Sequence record: PQ818760.1
DNA length: 52,452 nt
Origin: Escherichia phage EcoM1
Strand: one strand, 5' to 3'
This document shows, piece after piece, positions 10,901-48,770 of this stretch (positions are counted from its first letter, which is position 1; each line of letters starts with the position of its first letter). A program made the translations under genes and the position numbers. Under the pieces are notes generated by a model, which saw only the letters and a program-made list of their open reading frames with translations, was not told the DNA's origin and ran no database searches.

Positions 10901-11630
10901 AAGAAATATGTGGGGCCGATTTATTTCCTACATTAGAGGCCGAGGTATACCCAACTTCCTTAAAGGCTGTGGGTAACTCTTGTTCCAGACGTTTGGCAAC
11001 TCGACTAATGTCTCTTGCGTATTGTTCATGATTGCTGTATTGCTCACGGTCAACATACATGTGAGCCATGTAGTTGTATGAGTCGGCAATGTTTCCACGG
11101 TTGGTGGAGTATTCTGCCATAATATCACCAGCATAATGACCTGGGATTTCTGGCATAATATCTTGATGCCCTTGCAAAGTATCTCGCATGTAGGCATTAA
11201 GCATGTTGAAGCTACCTTGCGGTAAGTTCGGATTTGGCTTTGGCATGTGCATCCACACATCGTCTGTGTTGACACCAAGCCTTTCCATGTATGCGTGAAC
11301 AGCTTCTACATGGTGTGTTGGGCCATTCATTGCTGCATGAAATGCTTCTGTGTAGCCAGCACTTGAAAGCACTTGTGCAATGTGGGCAGCGTCTGAAATC
11401 ATGGAAGAGTCGCCCAAAGATTCAGTAATTAAACTGTCATCTTCAAACGACCCACCCATTAATTCTGCATTTGTATCCAGCCATCCCGAAGCAGCGCTCG
11501 CACTAAGTTGTTGAACCATGTGCGACTTCTTCATACCAGCATGGAAAGTCAGACCGCTTTGAGAGCCTAATGCAATTAACTCATTAACGCTCAACTTCAT
11601 TAAATCTTTTTGATTAGCCATTGTCTTCAT
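7905..11630 (-). CDS. tail tape measure protein with lytic transglycosylase (SLT) domain
   Basis: 1241 aa, largest ORF, downstream of tube and chaperone genes; contains GARGIMQILPSTA...YTDGPG transglycosylase-like segment and a Gly-rich region. Confidence 0.7.
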   Translation of the reverse strand: MKTMANQKDLMKLSVNELIALGSQSGLTFHAGMKKSHMVQQLSASAASGWLDTNAELMGGSFEDDSLITESLGDSSMISDAAHIAQVLSSAGYTEAFHAAMNGPTHHVEAVHAYMERLGVNTDDVWMHMPKPNPNLPQGSFNMLNAYMRDTLQGHQDIMPEIPGHYAGDIMAEYSTNRGNIADSYNYMAHMYVDREQYSNHEQYARDISRVAKRLEQELPTAFKEVGYTSASNVGNKSAPHISYMDALPQIGSPSIVSGIAHPRAPLNASGLPLGSYGSGINPEYSLTASLTGGTGWSEPSKALYSSISEAVKSAAKVYSGSKGMMNTRHEVSDRDMIMDSATRYTDLEEARSGYENLRSELADEPAYSASSVRAILENTYDKMDAEPVRIPKMKGASQRVEKDSQSTSTEFTAQLGEATNWNSARMRREEIAIANMDSAGFRDVSDYGTGRSESPVRFHDLEQGSQEWLDFRKNYDITGSTVGTFLGNNPYTRPWAGMIDKIGLSRSKEHSDFTKKMFADGHRTEEEARARVGKEFGFDIKQTGAITNDNYPAFMYSPDGLIGDDAIWEHKNPQRAGKFADLLKGDHPDYMDQIQFGMHVSGRSRALFSQTINDETRSQWIEKDEGWYERNRNRLDSVLGRLDAGREFVRNNAGLDREELISGARSAMTGDGIWKDIRQRSTRGYSAVAGTPEDPFIGSRSSYNPTASYSDYQPNFVMHEQNFPATTGNGDTGNDSMALSVKKGILAAQEENRQKGIGADADFNGKADSMGWDRERFDAANGGGYSGGGGGRGGNFTSGGNYYDDYGRMGGSLAAGIAGGSIGSATNGVMQALMATPAGRMAAVGIGAIQIGNEAAEYMNDFIGNSLDAGVMNPNEYSSMSQGLEMLGLNSQQAARLNQTTHSAYNTMLNGDPSAAVNIVRGSRGLLTIGDIRATGGDPVALARIMQERGKERGWSQARIAGAAEMAGLNGMARAYDRTEYSHEQAGSVVEAGRNSDFAEGMAQSEMLQGSRARVLPSYNVPQSVLSNGAPIFEAGSAALDGARTGYNQAREFAGSVYDFIAQEESGGREYNKDGSRVTSRTGARGIMQILPSTARDPGFGIKPSDGTPEDDARVGREYYDAMYKRYGDHEKAMAAYTDGPGTVDKAVDKNGLDWLTAVPVQAQNRVKAFREWSKSSQSLEEGATGFTRNGMSYGQTQTVVNVKIDAKVNNQTASATVAIPGGQTVTQQMNMNNGAQQRR

Positions 11631-36212: not shown

Positions 36213-36499
36213 AATGGAACTCCGTACATTGGCTGGTTTGTTGTCCAGCTGTAAATGAAGGATTTGGACAGAAGATGCTCGACTGGCTTGCCGAAACAAT
36301 ATTCCATGAATGATGGGGCATAGGTCGCATTGTTTAACAACTCTTTAATCGAATACATATTCATAAAGAAGTTAAACTTTGATTCGCTTCCTTCCCAACC
36401 AAATAAGTAAAACTTTCCACCCAAGAAAGCAAATGCTTCCATCTCTCCTGTGTGTACATTACGGGCCTTAATGACCCGGATAGAATGCTTGCGAATCAT
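36209..36499 (-). CDS. hypothetical early protein
   Basis: 96 aa, ATGA-coupled to the upstream gene. Confidence 0.4.
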   Translation of the reverse strand: MIRKHSIRVIKARNVHTGEMEAFAFLGGKFYLFGWEGSESKFNFFMNMYSIKELLNNATYAPSFMEYCFGKPVEHLLSKSFIYSWTTNQPMYGVPF

Positions 36500-36699
36500 T
36501 TTTGCAGCTCCTTAATTTTGGCAATCAAGTCGCGCATAATTTTGGGACCAATAGCTAAGTCACCAGTCATATCAGCAAGGTCACTTCCTATTGCTTTCGC
36601 ATTCATATCCCAGCCCTCAATAAGTTCCAACAACTCATCAATTGTGAAACCTTTGAACTGGAAGTTTTCGGTATTAATTACACCATATTTTTGAACCAT
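36496..36699 (-). CDS. hypothetical early protein
   Basis: 67 aa; first gene after the 36.7-37.56 kb non-coding island. Confidence 0.4.
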   Translation of the reverse strand: MVQKYGVINTENFQFKGFTIDELLELIEGWDMNAKAIGSDLADMTGDLAIGPKIMRDLIAKIKELQK

Positions 36700-37422
36700 A
36701 GGAACTCTCCAATTTTCGATTCAATGTTTGTGACTTCTCTTCTCATCTTTTGGCCCAGGAACAGGCCACAGGGTAGCGCAGGAAGGCCGAAAATCGGGCC
36801 ACTGCCTACCGTTTGTGTCAATTCTGGATAACTGCATTGGTGAAGGGTTACTCCCGTTAGGGTGCGATACGCTAATCACATGAGTGTCGTCGCCTTGCGG
36901 CTCAGGCGTGTCACAGAGGCTTTGCAACCCTTCCCAATACATTCACCCAATCCACCTGCTTTGGCATAGCTGGTGGCGCGGTTTTGTGCGGATTATGCCA
37001 CTCTAAGCCCTGTTTGTCCGACTTCCTCAGAGCACCAGCGGCTTGTGGCACAAACCTATTTTCGAATGACTAACATAAGCATGAGGCATAACCCTCTAAT
37101 TATTCAGCCCTAACAGCTTGCTTATTTAGTTCCAATTCATCCCAATACATCGCCTATAACAAGTGAATAGCTTTTCTGCGAAGAAGTATTCCGGCCCTTT
37201 GGCCTATGTTAAAAGATAAATGTATATGATGGAAACATTCCATCGAAAATAACTTTGTAGAATGAGTCGAACATTCTCGCACGATGCGGCCGCAACGGTC
37301 TACCGAGTTACAAAGTTATTATCTGATGTTGTTTCTTCAATTCCAACTAATGTTTCAGAATTATTCCAATATTCCAAACAAAAAGAATAATAAGAATAAA
37401 TTAAAATAAATGAAGAAAGTGC

Positions 37423-37452
37423 TTGACACTCATTTGGCGATAAGTGTATAAT
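37423..37452 (+). promoter_or_regulatory. consensus sigma70-type promoter, plus strand (antisense to genes)
   Basis: TTGACA (37423-37428), 18-bp spacer, TATAAT (37447-37452); preceded by a 45-nt A/T-rich tract (37376-37420) resembling an UP element. Coordinates anchored on the ORF ending at 37488. Confidence 0.5.
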
Positions 37453-37458
37453 GCCTTT
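37441..37458 (-). promoter_or_regulatory. phage promoter-like element
   Basis: + strand ttccaactaatgtttcag; lies inside the non-coding island, overlapping the -10 of the plus-strand sigma70 promoter. Confidence 0.35.
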
Positions 37459-37482
37459 CTTCCCTAAGTGGTCAGAATCAAA

Positions 37483-37499
37483 TCCCACTAATGTTTCAG
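37483..37499 (-). promoter_or_regulatory. phage promoter-like element (variant)
   Basis: + strand tcccactaatgtttcag, 30 nt right of the sigma70 -10 box. Confidence 0.35.
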
Positions 37500-37563
37500 A
37501 CTAAAGCCGAAGGCCAATGCGAGCACAAAACCCGCTTGGCACTTCGAAGAAACCCGCTTGGAA

Positions 37564-37863
37564 CTATAGTGTTTTCCAATCTGAGTCAAATAGCTCTTTC
37601 GGTCGTGTGTAGATAGTAGAAGAATCAATACTCAAGAAAGTATGGTCCCCGTACTTCTTCACTTCTTGGTAAGCAAACCCATCCACCCAACTTCCGCAGT
37701 GAGTTTTAATCTTTGTAGGCCCAAGAATACGATAGAAAGTGTTTCGAGGCTGGTGGTGAACAATCAATCCAGCCTCAAGTTCAGAAATATTTAAATCACG
37801 CATTTGAGAATAGTATCCCTTCGGAGAAAGTGTAATCACTTCCGTAATCTCTTGCAACTGCAT
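37564..37863 (-). CDS. hypothetical early protein
   Basis: 99 aa; 5' end overlaps the ArdA-like gene, true start may be the internal ATG near 37803. Confidence 0.35.
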   Translation of the reverse strand: MQLQEITEVITLSPKGYYSQMRDLNISELEAGLIVHHQPRNTFYRILGPTKIKTHCGSWVDGFAYQEVKKYGDHTFLSIDSSTIYTRPKELFDSDWKTL

Positions 37864-38344
37864 CCCAATCGATATATGGACGAAGATGGTCTGGAACTTC
37901 TATGCCATCATATTGCTGGAAATAATCCGCAATTGAATTACATCGGCAAATAACCTTGTCATTCAAGTCGTCTACAGTGAAAATATCAATATCACCACTG
38001 CGGAATGCCGCAAGAATTACATCCAAATCAGTATCAACAAGCAGTTCGTTGAATTTGTCGTATCTGCGAATGCTGAACAGGCCGTTGGCAAAGCAAACTT
38101 CGGTAACATCTTCTTCATTTGACTCAATTACGTCATATGTACCGGATTCTGGATACTCAATGCCGTATTCTTCATGCAAATATTCCCGCATGTCGAAATC
38201 ATAGTGACGCCAAGATAGGCCATCAATCCACGCATCTACAAATTCAGAATTAGTCTCGCCTGTGTAGAAACGAACCAGTAGGGTTTCATCTCTACGCCAG
38301 GACTTTAGCTGTTCTACTGCTTGAGTAATGTTATCGTTTTGCAT
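37796..38344 (-). CDS. ardA: ArdA-like anti-restriction protein
   Basis: Acidic protein whose C-terminus (HLRPYIDWDAVARDYGSDYTFSEGILFSN) matches the conserved ArdA C-terminal motif as I recall it (YIDYQAYGRDLDLSGTF...). Start taken at the ATG just past the upstream stop. Confidence 0.65.
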   Translation of the reverse strand: MQNDNITQAVEQLKSWRRDETLLVRFYTGETNSEFVDAWIDGLSWRHYDFDMREYLHEEYGIEYPESGTYDVIESNEEDVTEVCFANGLFSIRRYDKFNELLVDTDLDVILAAFRSGDIDIFTVDDLNDKVICRCNSIADYFQQYDGIEVPDHLRPYIDWDAVARDYGSDYTFSEGILFSNA

Positions 38345-38621
38345 TGAGTTTCTCCCACATGCCTTGGAGTTCCGCATTAAGGATTTTGAGCTGTTCGATT
38401 CGCTCCTTTCCACCCTTTACTAATATGTCTAAGATGGCAGTCTTCTCGTCGTATGTTACCGGATAGCAACAACCATCAACCGAAATTTCGTATCGTAGAT
38501 TTCGAGAATCGTACACATAGTTTGACAAATGCTGGTGGAGTTCTGCCTCTGCACGAGATGTGCGAGATTGCATACGCTCTAACTCTTTCGGTATTTCCTG
38601 ATATTCCATCGGATGCTCCAT
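38331..38621 (-). CDS. hypothetical early protein
   Basis: 96 aa, contains a CC pair and a coiled-coil-like C-terminus. Confidence 0.4.
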   Translation of the reverse strand: MEHPMEYQEIPKELERMQSRTSRAEAELHQHLSNYVYDSRNLRYEISVDGCCYPVTYDEKTAILDILVKGGKERIEQLKILNAELQGMWEKLNAKR

Positions 38622-45360: not shown

Positions 45361-45424
45361 ACTCCCTACAGAACGATTGTGGAGGTCTTGTCTTACCTCA
45401 ATCCACCTTAAAGTTGTAGGGAGT
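45361..45424 (-). promoter_or_regulatory. structured leader (10-bp inverted repeat with nested stem)
   Basis: ACTCCCTACA (45361-45370) pairs with TGTAGGGAGT (45415-45424); nested GAGGT/ACCTC stem inside; 23 nt upstream of the first early gene. Confidence 0.35.
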
Positions 45425-45531
45425 ATGTGACACAGCAAGTGCCGAAAAACTACAATGATTAGCTTGGAGACATAATCTCTCTAAAATCTGTCACACAATT
45501 TCAGCAGAATTTACAGAGATTTGGTCTTATT

Positions 45532-45548
45532 CACATGCAACTAATGAT
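45532..45548 (-). promoter_or_regulatory. phage promoter-like element (GCATGTG variant)
   Basis: + strand cacatgcaactaatgat; same as the recurrent element with c-to-g at one position. Confidence 0.3.
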
Positions 45549-46446
45549 AAATGGACATGCTTAATTGCAACTAACTCATCTGCCAAATAGACGAATTTTG
45601 TCACAATTAAACATGCATCATTAATTACAGGTTTGCTCCTATCTTGGAATGTATTTGGCACATCAAGAAGTGGCGCAATAGGTACGGAAAACCGACCATT
45701 TACAGCATAATAAAACTAATTAAATAAAGGGTTTTACCCCAATATTGTCACAATATTTACATGCGATGATAAAGCCTTCGCTTGGCTGGAAGCCAGTATT
45801 CATGCGGGTTGCAAGAATATTGGGTCAATACTGATACAGCTATTACATGCGAAATTGGCACAAATGTTGTTACAAAATTAACATGCCAGATTGGTAGACG
45901 ATTGTATCTTCGAGGTGATTAGTCCTCTAACAATTCTGCCACATTCCAACATGCCAATTTGTAGCAATATTTACATGCCATACTGCGACAATATTGTCAC
46001 AATATTTGTTGCTCAAAATCGGGGCGGGCTACGGGATTAGTTTCGATGCTTTGTCCGACTTCTTCTCTTCTTTCGAATTCTGATTGAAAGAAAGAAGCAT
46101 GTCCAAAAGTTCCAATATTACCAAAGTTATCTCCCGGCTTGTGGGTGGGCCTTTATAATAGGAGATGGAGCAATATTGAAACAAGTGGACATGCTGATTT
46201 GCTGACTTTCTTGTAACTTAATCAAGATGGCTAACACGATGTTCTGTTGTTAGTTCAGCACCGGAAGTAACAGTTTCGAATGATAATCCTACTTCACACA
46301 TGGTTGCTGGAACTTTGTCCGGCCAAAGACAGGGAGTTCAATGATTGCCACATCATTACAACACTGTATGTTTAGTTGACATGCTGAAATGTTTCTAGAA
46401 TGATTTCAACATGACATGCGGAATACTTCTCCGTATTCTGTTACTT

Positions 46447-46464
46447 CACATCCAACTAATGTCG
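46447..46464 (-). promoter_or_regulatory. phage promoter-like element
   Basis: + strand cacatccaactaatgtcg; coordinates anchored on the plus ORF starting at 46411. Confidence 0.35.
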
Positions 46465-46512
46465 AATATCGAGACAATATTACATGCAGCAATATTGTCT
46501 GAATATTGGGAA

Positions 46513-46680
46513 TCAGTTGAGCGTAGGCTTAACAACTTCATACTGCTTATCACCATCAGTGATTTCACAGTCTACATAGATATTCTCTTCACGAGCTGCA
46601 AACTTACGTGCTTCCTCTAAAGTCTCAAACTTCTCACAAACTGTTTTGCCGTAGTATGTAACGAGGTTAACTGCAAACAT
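46513..46680 (-). CDS. small protein (55 aa)
   Basis: Found by hand: GGAG 7 nt upstream of ATG at 46680, TGA at 46513-46515; a variant promoter-like element ends 29 nt upstream. Confidence 0.3.
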   Translation of the reverse strand: MFAVNLVTYYGKTVCEKFETLEEARKFAAREENIYVDCEITDGDKQYEVVKPTLN

Positions 46681-46743: not shown

Positions 46744-48684
46744 TTACTGACAGAAGTAGTAAGCGTGTTCGCTCATCAGCAACTCTTCTGTAACAATGTT
46801 CTCATGATACATCTGAATGCCACCAAGTTGCTTAGACAGATTCTCGAATTGATTGTTGGTTACAAAGATTTCAACATATGCTGCACGAATAACTTCCATC
46901 ATACGTGGAGCATCTGCCAGACAGCAACGGAAACAATCATGGATTGAAGTAAAGCCACGAAGACCAGCCTCTTTAGCTTTAACTGCAACAGTACGAGCAA
47001 CCAATGCGTCAATACCTTGAATGTAGTTAACAACGAAAGTACGCTTGAATTCTTCTTTAGTTGGATTGGATTCACGAATGGTCCAAGGCTTATTCTCCTG
47101 AATCTGGCCAAAGATAACACGAGTTTGAGAGTCAACACGAATGCTGAATGCCTCACAGATTTCACGAGATGGGAAGCAAGGCTTCATTACAACCTGACCA
47201 TCAGTGTGACGATATGTGATGTACTCTTTACCAAGTTCAACACAACGGTTGTATGCAGCATCAGCAGCCTTCTCAATGAACATGTTAATCTTAGCACCCA
47301 ATGCGTTATGGATTGCTTCTACACACAGTTCAGCAAATGCCTCAGCTTTCTCCATAGGAATCTGGAGCGCTTCTGTCATGTAGCTAATGAAGTCAGATGA
47401 ACCAGTTAATGCAGCTTTACCACCACCATATTGAATAGCCATGTACGGAGTTTTGATAAACTTACGACCAGCTTTCGGATTCAAGAATTCATCCATGATT
47501 TCAGGAGATGGTTTCATTGAAGAACGGTCTAATAACTTCAACAGTTCACGAAGAGATAACTGGTATGGGTCAGATGCTTTAGTCTCAGAATCAACCAGAC
47601 CTGTTGCACGAGCCATTTCCATGTTACCAGCAATGAATGCCAGATATTGAGTACCAGAACATTTAGCATCTAGGCCAAAGCCTACACGAGAATCGCACTC
47701 ACCTGTAGTCTCAAACTTGAACCAATCCAGAGCCAGACGAACATAAGTGAATGGCTTGGAAGGACGTTCAGCTTTAGGCATGTTCATCATGCGAGCAAGT
47801 GAACCAGCTGGATTCTGAGCAACATAAGTTAAACGCTTAGCAGTACACCATTCACCACCCGAAATATCTTCCAGCTCTGCCATGAACATGTTGTATGCAA
47901 TGGTAGTAGAACCATCTTCGTTAAACTTCTTAACGATGTTCTCAACATTGTGAGAATACAAGCAACGAGCAAAGTCAGATGATTGTGGGTTAGGACCAGC
48001 ACATGCTACATGATACAGACGACCACGGTTATCAGCAAAGTAGTCAGAGTACAGCTTATCCTGATTCATCATTGCTACAGCATTGTTCCAAACATGGAGT
48101 TCAGTCTGGATTGCTTCTGGCATCTGCAAGCCACCATAAGTACGTTGCTCAATCATGGACTGGATGATGCGAACCATCTCAGTCTCCACATGGTACTCAG
48201 TATCTTGCAGGAATTCGATTGCAGCTTTCAGAGTTTTGGATGGCTTAACTTTGCCACCTTTAACGAAAGGCTTGCGACGAGATTCAGATGTAACACGCTC
48301 AGTGAATGGCACTGCTGTGTCTTTGGTTGTAACCAGCTCAACCCATGTGTCAGTCTGTTGGAATGACTTGTCTTCGTTCATGGTGATGAAGCCAAAGTGC
48401 TTAGCCAGACCAATGAGGTTGATAGCTGGGTCAACATAGTGCATTGCTTTCAAATCGTTGTTATAACGGTTGGCATCAGCAATAGAAGCAGAAGCCAGCT
48501 CAACCATCGCGATGGCAGGAACAACGTCATCACGAGTGAAAGACGTCATCATCTTGAAGATGGCTAAGGCAGCAATAGCACAAGTCTGAGGCTGCATATA
48601 GTTCTGTTTCTCTTTGGCACGGTATACCAGAGCAGTGATAGCAGGAACAACGGATTTGATAGTTTGAGTAGTGATAGTAGTCAT
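46744..48684 (-). CDS. single-subunit DNA-dependent RNA polymerase (T7-type)
   Basis: 646 aa with the three catalytic motifs of T7-class polymerases: LDAKCSGTQYLAFIAG (T7 DGSCSGIQHF, motif A), KTPYMAIQYGGGK (T7 KRSVMTLAYGSK, O-helix K/Y), TSIHDCFRCC (T7 LIHDSFGT, motif C). Shorter than T7 RNAP (883 aa). ATG start with GGAG 9 nt upstream. Confidence 0.85.
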   Translation of the reverse strand: MTTITTQTIKSVVPAITALVYRAKEKQNYMQPQTCAIAALAIFKMMTSFTRDDVVPAIAMVELASASIADANRYNNDLKAMHYVDPAINLIGLAKHFGFITMNEDKSFQQTDTWVELVTTKDTAVPFTERVTSESRRKPFVKGGKVKPSKTLKAAIEFLQDTEYHVETEMVRIIQSMIEQRTYGGLQMPEAIQTELHVWNNAVAMMNQDKLYSDYFADNRGRLYHVACAGPNPQSSDFARCLYSHNVENIVKKFNEDGSTTIAYNMFMAELEDISGGEWCTAKRLTYVAQNPAGSLARMMNMPKAERPSKPFTYVRLALDWFKFETTGECDSRVGFGLDAKCSGTQYLAFIAGNMEMARATGLVDSETKASDPYQLSLRELLKLLDRSSMKPSPEIMDEFLNPKAGRKFIKTPYMAIQYGGGKAALTGSSDFISYMTEALQIPMEKAEAFAELCVEAIHNALGAKINMFIEKAADAAYNRCVELGKEYITYRHTDGQVVMKPCFPSREICEAFSIRVDSQTRVIFGQIQENKPWTIRESNPTKEEFKRTFVVNYIQGIDALVARTVAVKAKEAGLRGFTSIHDCFRCCLADAPRMMEVIRAAYVEIFVTNNQFENLSKQLGGIQMYHENIVTEELLMSEHAYYFCQ

Positions 48685-48752
48685 TTGTAAGTCTCCAAGA
48701 TTGTGTATGATTTAACTGAAACGGATTATAATAGCGTAGCCATTACACAATT

Positions 48753-48770
48753 CACTTCCAACTAATATCA
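48753..48770 (-). promoter_or_regulatory. phage promoter-like element upstream of the polymerase gene
   Basis: + strand cacttccaactaatatca, 69 nt upstream of the polymerase ATG; a TATAAT hexamer lies between it and the gene. Confidence 0.35.

Follow-up and report, generated by a model that had tools for sequence, protein, structure and literature searches.

The window, a stretch of 52,452 nt from Escherichia phage EcoM1 (PQ818760.1) that was analysed here as a whole, contains a sigma-70 promoter with both hexamers at full consensus (Table 1), which reads antisense to all genes and faces, at short range, a predicted promoter (P4) of the phage's own RNA polymerase. The site may be a genuine, selected promoter that acts on P4 and on the upstream operon by convergent interference or antisense transcription, and this reading, suggested by sequence, conservation and geometry, is put forward tentatively as the best available explanation. 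The promoter is almost certainly used by the host polymerase, firing being predicted from the sequence, while a chance origin is ruled out, as far as sequence comparison can tell, by conservation across genera.

Escherichia phage ST32 shares 97.8% identity with positions 36400-38000 of the window, and about 50 phage records match the region, nearly all of which belong to the phiEcoM-GJ1/ST32 group of genus Carltongylesvirus in subfamily Cleopatravirinae of Chaseviridae. The EcoM1 window is Carltongylesvirus DNA, from a contractile-tailed myovirus encoding a T7-like RNA polymerase. Chaseviridae genomes are linear, with a single coding strand and terminal repeats of ~3 kb that include the polymerase gene, and the ICTV profile of the family gives its promoters as not identified (PMC12842549). 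In the window the coding strand is the minus strand, as all long ORFs and the annotated genes of relatives agree, so that an earlier sequence-only reading correctly placed every credible gene there. The ORF-poor island which it described at 36.70-37.56 kb is likewise real, extending from the start of the minus-strand gene at 36496-36699 to the stop of that at 37564-37863, and it is blank in the ST32 and SA91KD records. In coding order the sigma-70 site is located upstream of the replication genes.

Table 1. Features at and around the antisense sigma-70 promoter of EcoM1 (positions in the window).
Feature	Position	Strand	Remarks
-35 hexamer TTGACA	37423-37428	+	6/6 consensus; identical in every lineage examined except L034 (TTGACG)
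18-nt spacer CTCATTTGGCGATAAGTG	37429-37446	+	short dyad ACACT...AGTGT
-10 hexamer TATAAT	37447-37452	+	6/6 consensus; GC next in most lineages
A+T-rich, UP-element-like tract	37364-37422	+	directly 5' of -35; 80% A+T; TATTCCAA twice and AAGAATAA twice
Predicted phage-RNA-polymerase promoter P4	37477-37496	-	'phage promoter 4' in phiEcoM-GJ1, promoter in SA91KD
Predicted phage-RNA-polymerase promoter P5	37336-37355	-	divergent from sigma-70 site across A+T tract
GC mini-hairpin GCCGAAGGC and longer hairpin GCCAATGCG...CGCTTGGC	37506-37540	-	equivalent annotated as rho-independent terminator in SA91KD
Duplicated AAACCCGCTTGG(C/A)ACT	37528-37565	+	copies at 37528 and 37550, 22 nt apart
gp27-like gene	37564-37863	-	last gene of upstream block
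Antirestriction gene	37796-38413	-	upstream block
Next-block gene	36496-36699	-	with ribosome-binding site; left edge of ORF-poor island
Structured non-coding leader	36700-37335	-	downstream of P5; not driven by sigma-70 promoter
RNA polymerase gene	46744-48684	-	9.3 kb from sigma-70 site, which lies downstream
Second large non-coding region	45400-46520		after RNA polymerase gene; lowest G+C in genome

The position and sequence of TTGACA-18 bp-TATAAT on the plus strand, as first reported in the sequence-only reading, are confirmed, and the A/T-rich tract noted at 37376-37420 is present, the 45 nt 5' of the -35 hexamer being 82% A+T. The 18-nt spacer lies within the 17 +/- 1 nt expected of a sigma-70 site. 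Transcription is predicted to start near 37459-37460 on the plus strand, at a pyrimidine in the window and in PP101 and at a purine in 4HA13, Faunus, phiA050 and Myduc. An outer inverted repeat (37412-37462) encloses the entire promoter in the window. From base composition, 0.044 perfect 12/12 matches are expected per window, and 200 shuffles gave 7, in line with the earlier estimate of well below one; no other sigma-70 match of at least 11/12 is found in the whole window on either strand with spacers of 16-18 nt. The GJ1 record carries one sense-strand host promoter, annotated before the polymerase gene, which reaches 10/12 by our own count, together with ten phage promoters, while the SA91KD record carries phage promoters and terminators. 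The best host promoter of these genomes is the backward-facing site, not the one before the polymerase gene. This antisense site is unmarked in both records, as in all annotations inspected, and is unmentioned in the literature searched, the phiEcoM-GJ1 and Y2 genome papers lying outside that search.

Six genera share the perfect TTGACA-18-TATAAT arrangement, with unchanged location and antisense orientation, and are represented by Carltongylesvirus (phiEcoM-GJ1), Sabourvirus (4HA13), Faunusvirus (Faunus), Aeromonas phage phiA050, Suwonvirus (PP101) and Myducvirus (Myduc). In each, the site follows closely on the antirestriction gene and one small gene, and reads against all genes. The hosts of these phages include Escherichia, Erwinia, Pectobacterium, Proteus and Aeromonas. 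In pairwise comparison of the six representatives each hexamer is 100% identical, while identity is 46% in the spacer, which is 18 nt long in all six, 44% in the 30 nt upstream and, downstream, 52% in the first 15-nt block and 29% in the second. Although their sequences differ, the 45 nt before the -35 hexamer are 67-87% A+T in all six genera, a check of the UP element that is made by composition alone. Metagenomes were also scanned with a motif of the non-coding leader that has no relation to the promoter, and three of the five hits are related loci: L102 has perfect hexamers with an 18-nt spacer, L106 is of the GJ1 type, and L103 has perfect hexamers around a wholly different 17-nt spacer, with an ORF inserted between the promoter and P5. 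L103 thus keeps the two hexamers at a functional spacing, and as it also keeps P4 though its ORF splits off P5, what persists as a unit is the host promoter together with P4, to which the A+T repeats and P5 do not belong. Since exactly the two hexamers are invariant, at 17-18 nt and behind an A+T tract, the pattern is the signature of sigma-70 recognition and not of a hairpin. The earlier view of the site as a textbook host promoter, not a chance match, is thus upheld by hexamers that stay perfect in six genera and two metagenomic lineages while spacer and flanks diverge.

Within Carltongylesvirus, the block of ~240 bp at 37337-37565 is ~97% identical, compared with 61-95% for the adjacent antirestriction protein, and it behaves like a conserved linker at a mosaic junction. 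To the left of 37337 and P5 the sequence is unrelated between phages.

The element is widespread and, as judged from its distribution, ancient in Cleopatravirinae, yet not indispensable. In Loessnervirus (Y2, Fifi44 and SSEM1) both hexamers are kept with a spacer of only 8 nt, outside the 17 +/- 1 nt range and exactly 10 bp shorter than 18, there is no A+T tract, and TTGAC occurs once more after the -10 hexamer. The viral genome L034 has the same 8-nt arrangement with TTGACG as its -35 hexamer, so that L010, L016, L017 and L034 (Loessnervirus and a relative) form the set with this spacing. The site is absent from the Myduc-like L048, and this loss together with the Loessnervirus spacing indicates that the function is dispensable or replaceable. 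In the three Nefertitivirinae examined no such site lies within 20 kb of the polymerase gene. No second conserved antisense promoter was found, the near-consensus sites of Y2 (4578) and Myduc (4637) lying inside genes, and the other genomes scanned contain no antisense match of at least 11/12. IMG/VR searched with the antirestriction protein returned known isolates only, and hits of a 16-nt motif scan of IMG/VR mostly had no phage-promoter or sigma-70 feature nearby. Phage 4HA13 contains a second TTGACA inside its 18-nt spacer, which suggests that the 8-nt spacer of Loessnervirus arose via deletion between direct repeats. In SSEM1 the -10 element is of the canonical extended type, TGTTATAAT.

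The 17-nt phage-promoter motif ACATTAGTTGGATGTGA is matched 10 times in the window with at most 3 mismatches, where 0.33 matches are expected. All 10 lie on the minus strand and correspond to sites that phiEcoM-GJ1 and SA91KD annotate as 'putative phage promoters'. P4 (core 37477-37494) and P5 stand in tandem on this strand, 141 nt apart, with the sigma-70 promoter between them, P4 being oriented to fire toward it and P5 away from it. The proposal that two phage-promoter copies flank the island and read outward is therefore not sustained, as the tandem pair brackets the sigma-70 promoter, not the island. TATAAT and the P4 core are separated by 30-47 nt on opposite strands in 7 lineages, as a predicted convergent pair. 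In PP101, Myduc and L103, P5 does not adjoin the sigma-70 promoter. On the minus strand the order is the stop of the gp27-like gene, the hairpins at 37506-37540, P4, the reversed host promoter, the A+T tract, P5, the leader (640 nt) and the next gene. The hairpins, immediately ahead of P4, resemble a terminator for the upstream operon, and a terminator-like hairpin is kept in other genera with different sequences. The duplicated plus-strand sequence noticed earlier downstream of the promoter is present as AAACCCGCTTGG, copy 1 being the 3' arm of the terminator hairpin and copy 2 abutting the stop codon of the gene at 37564-37863; the repeat spacing is 21 nt in GJ1, 4HA13 and Faunus. A hairpin with a U-rich tract on the P4 transcript was considered as a terminator and rejected, being inconsistent across genera. 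A further phage-promoter motif with 2 mismatches, just upstream of the RNA polymerase gene (48752-48768, minus strand), suggests positive feedback.

Of the three functions proposed in the sequence-only reading, namely an antisense RNA over the early genes, a priming transcript for an origin and a sink for host polymerase, the geometry described above favours interference and antisense action, while a sink is unlikely for one site. Host RNA polymerase would fire antisense from the first minutes, before the phage T7-like polymerase exists, at the boundary where the promoter and P4 face each other, between an early/middle block that ends with the antirestriction and gp27 genes and the next block. 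As the predicted start points lie ~20-35 bp apart, a host polymerase bound at or leaving the site would hinder initiation at P4 and read-through from upstream, by a 'sitting duck' effect or occlusion, and an untranslated antisense RNA would be made that covers the upstream operon at its 3' end, where gp27 and the antirestriction gene lie. When the phage polymerase becomes abundant or the host polymerase is disabled, transcription from P4 would overrun and silence the host promoter. The open complex of sigma-70 polymerase protects DNA to about +20, and a T7-type polymerase at initiation covers about -17 to +8. Given these footprints, the end of the -10 hexamer at 37452 and the position of the P4 core, the two enzymes are predicted to abut, or to collide within the first few nt of P4 transcription, in Carltongylesvirus, and to collide within about 10-25 nt in the other genera. 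Where both promoters of a convergent pair are host promoters, such interference is well documented as a mechanism (PMC5001618, PMC5423467). No host-polymerase inhibitor is found among 20 early proteins by PHROG annotation, so the release step is put forward by inference only. The analysis shows the promoter sequence, its conservation and the geometry, while firing, interference and timing are predicted. In a stronger form, which is considered unlikely, the consensus host promoter would hold host RNA polymerase as a roadblock before the phage promoter, and the replication and late genes would start once the host enzyme is displaced or inactivated, as a polymerase-to-polymerase checkpoint. T7 gains its timing through slow genome entry that is driven by transcription, and such a checkpoint would stand in for this in a phage that presumably injects all its DNA at once.

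A plus-strand transcript would run antisense to 37564-37863 and 37796-38413. From the promoter to 41.6 kb the plus strand has no terminator-like site (hairpin and U-run), which fits a non-coding transcript terminated otherwise. The plus strand here is C-rich and G-poor, and an untranslated transcript of this composition would be a good Rho substrate.

The main rival to interference is that the promoter is part of a replication origin, where host transcription and the divergent P5 would unwind the A+T tract by negative supercoiling, or prime leftward synthesis. Several features suit this idea, including the A+T tract immediately upstream and flanked by divergent promoters, the short GGAATA/TATTCC and AAGAATAA repeats in 4 genera, the extreme within-genus conservation of the block and the location upstream of the replication genes. 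The phi1.1A/B region of T7 has tandem phage promoters and then a long hairpin, the R1.1 site, and the window resembles it in its tandem phage promoters followed by a long processing-type hairpin, its A+T stretch and a non-coding gap before the replication genes. The T7 primary origin comprises phi1.1A, phi1.1B and an A+T-rich stretch (Saito et al. 1980, cited in PMC12839067). It is not known to contain a host promoter, however, and lies directly after the polymerase gene, a position taken in the window by the repeat-rich region 45400-46520, whereas the sigma-70 site is 9.3 kb downstream of that gene. The A+T tract here also lies between the two phage promoters (P4, ~60 nt, A+T tract, P5), in an arrangement that varies across genera: in L103 the ORF separates the promoter from P5, and PP101 and Myduc have neither the GGAATA repeats nor an adjacent P5. 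The sequence downstream of the promoter is not A+T-rich, which makes an R-loop primer unlikely, the GC skew is monotonic with no turning point anywhere, and the density of DnaA boxes in the island is not above the window average. A reversed DnaA box at the -10 region (resembling TTATNCACA) was rejected, as the likeness comes mostly from TATAAT and the preceding TG. With region 45400-46520 as the better candidate, an origin at the promoter is a weakened idea and unlikely, though it deserves some weight. It is less probable still, and on the whole doubtful, that the hexamers are conserved for a reason other than initiation, as binding sites for phage proteins, as a hairpin in the P4 leader or DNA, or as a recombination linker between mosaic modules. 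Such a reason would agree with Loessnervirus, ~83% identical over the region, keeping the hexamers 8 nt apart, one helical turn less; with the outer inverted repeat around the promoter; with the dyad, of a different sequence each time, that spans the spacer in 4 of the six genera and L102; and with unrelated sequence that starts immediately left of P5 and, in L103, within the spacer. Yet the dyad and the outer stem are both absent in PP101 and Myduc, fold z-scores are weak (-0.5 to -2.8), and only the two sigma-70 hexamers are invariant, 17-18 nt apart and always behind the A+T tract, while the whole local block is conserved in Loessnervirus, so that retention of the hexamers there is little informative.

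The remaining alternatives concern the product of the promoter. A discrete trans-acting small RNA of ~50-110 nt, which would pair with phage-promoter sequences in read-through mRNAs or serve as an early anti-defence RNA, is improbable. In such a transcript the phage promoter core, present at 10 sites, would indeed appear as its complement, together with hairpins and the duplicated 12-mer, and a host promoter gives the earliest possible expression. The transcript would, however, have no hairpin-plus-U-run terminator on the plus strand, its fold z-score is only -2.0, and cross-genus identity decays quickly after +15, to 29% by +16 to +30. Rfam gave nothing credible for the whole window at gathering thresholds, or for 36500-37700 and five related loci, including those of other genera, in E-value scans, and a scan of the window for tRNA and tmRNA was empty. 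Two minus-strand functions, the terminator and P4, explain every conserved downstream feature (the hairpins, the P4 reverse complement and the repeated GCTTGGAAC). Least probable, and only barely credible, is a missed plus-strand protein gene, or a chance match or host-derived fragment. Several plus-strand ORFs of 41-82 aa do lie downstream of the promoter, but two of the three larger ones carry stops in relatives, no ribosome-binding site precedes any of the downstream ORFs, the nearest (37491-37616) is frameshifted in GJ1, flopper and Mangalitsa, and that at 37956-38204 has stops in five relatives; the ORF at 37642-37794 is intact in all five relatives and wholly antisense to gp27. The missed gene immediately downstream, which the sequence-only reading named as the finding that would speak against it, is thus not seen, the plus-strand ORFs being broken by frameshifts or stops in close relatives. 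A chance match or host fragment is opposed by the expectation of 0.044, by the conservation across genera and by the sequence having no match among 5,426 E. coli genomes.

Antisense transcription from a host promoter is a kind already known in phages, with oop in lambda, sar in P22 and minor promoters in T7 as examples, while the perfect conservation and the face-to-face pairing with a phage-polymerase promoter are new here, and a pair served by two polymerases would be a new variant. The promoters pR and pL of coliphage 186 are arranged face to face, and, as is proposed here, one of two short-range facing promoters limits the other at the boundary of differently timed gene blocks. Unlike in 186, two enzymes would be involved here (the host sigma-70 holoenzyme and the T7-like single-subunit polymerase), the distance between starts, ~20-35 bp, is shorter, and the interference is a prediction. 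The site also resembles Po/oop of lambda and sar/ant of P22, where a host-type promoter lies antisense within a rightward operon and gives an untranslated RNA that can pair with the 3' or 5' part of messages nearby. The oop and sar RNAs are short and defined, each with its own intrinsic terminator, whereas no such terminator is found here, and lambda and P22, unlike the present phage, are not known to have a phage polymerase. The lambda oop RNA adjoins the origin and was first proposed as a primer. Dunn and Studier reportedly described, in 1983, minor E. coli promoters of T7, some of them leftward; like the present site they are host-type sites in a genome mostly read rightward by the phage polymerase. 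They are weak, with no assigned role and no known conservation, whereas the present site is of perfect consensus, the best in its genome and conserved across genera.

Chaseviridae pair a T7-like RNA polymerase with a myovirus body. The 30-bp element offers a precise and cheap experimental entry to the coordination of host and phage polymerases on one template. A cross-polymerase switch, if that is what the site is, would be new as a regulatory arrangement and would serve as a compact part in two-enzyme synthetic circuits.

The finding also bears on annotation, as several deposited genomes call ORFs across the promoter. Proteins annotated in several GenBank records across the promoter cassette and the island are small and hypothetical, or are even called 'tail fiber protein' or 'envelope glycoprotein', and these calls look spurious. 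A minus-strand ORF of 62 aa over the promoter (37300-37488) was rejected as a gene, as it starts inside P4 and contains P5, and an indel of 1 nt in TH29 shifts its frame. Position 1 of the record of phage flopper (MN850594) is equivalent to window position 37342, inside P5, which may reflect broken assembly at the repeated promoter sequence and not a physical end; the observation also takes in positions 187-419 of the TH29 record (MT446403).

Region 45400-46520 contains at least 5 copies of the 17-bp palindrome AATATTGTCACAATATT, ~10 (T)TGACATGC/GCATGT repeats and three phage-promoter motifs. To judge from 4HA13 and Myduc, it also spans the right boundary of the terminal repeat, and it may serve as an origin, as an array of operators or in processing of the ends.

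The leader downstream of P5 contains two structured elements with compensatory changes across genera, whose G-U pairs fit the minus strand only. A branched tRNA-like element at 37228-37334 (minus strand), directly after P5, has a long closing stem (AAACAACATC...GATGGAATGTTTCCATC) and a T-loop-like GTTCGAnTC. The stem varies in sequence and keeps its pairing in GJ1, 4HA13, Faunus, phiA050 and L071, and at the corresponding position of L102 ARAGORN predicts a tRNA-like gene whose anticodon loop is aberrant. A three-way RNA motif of ~55 nt at 37073-37127 (minus strand) has an invariant AGCUGUUAGGGCUGA core in ten lineages, including Loessnervirus and Myduc, with compensatory changes in 7 of its 15 predicted pairs and no Rfam match, and more conserved structured sequence follows it, up to the ribosome-binding site of the gene at 36496-36699. 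The non-coding island is also a landing site for extra genes. In GJ1 (L009) an ORF at 11029-11430 within the island, Cys/His-rich and annotated as 'putative exonuclease SbcC', has motifs that are, by eye, reminiscent of HNH endonuclease. The ORF of L103 lies ~100-500 nt after the host promoter, while Faunus and phiA050 carry a small ORF between two P5-like promoters.
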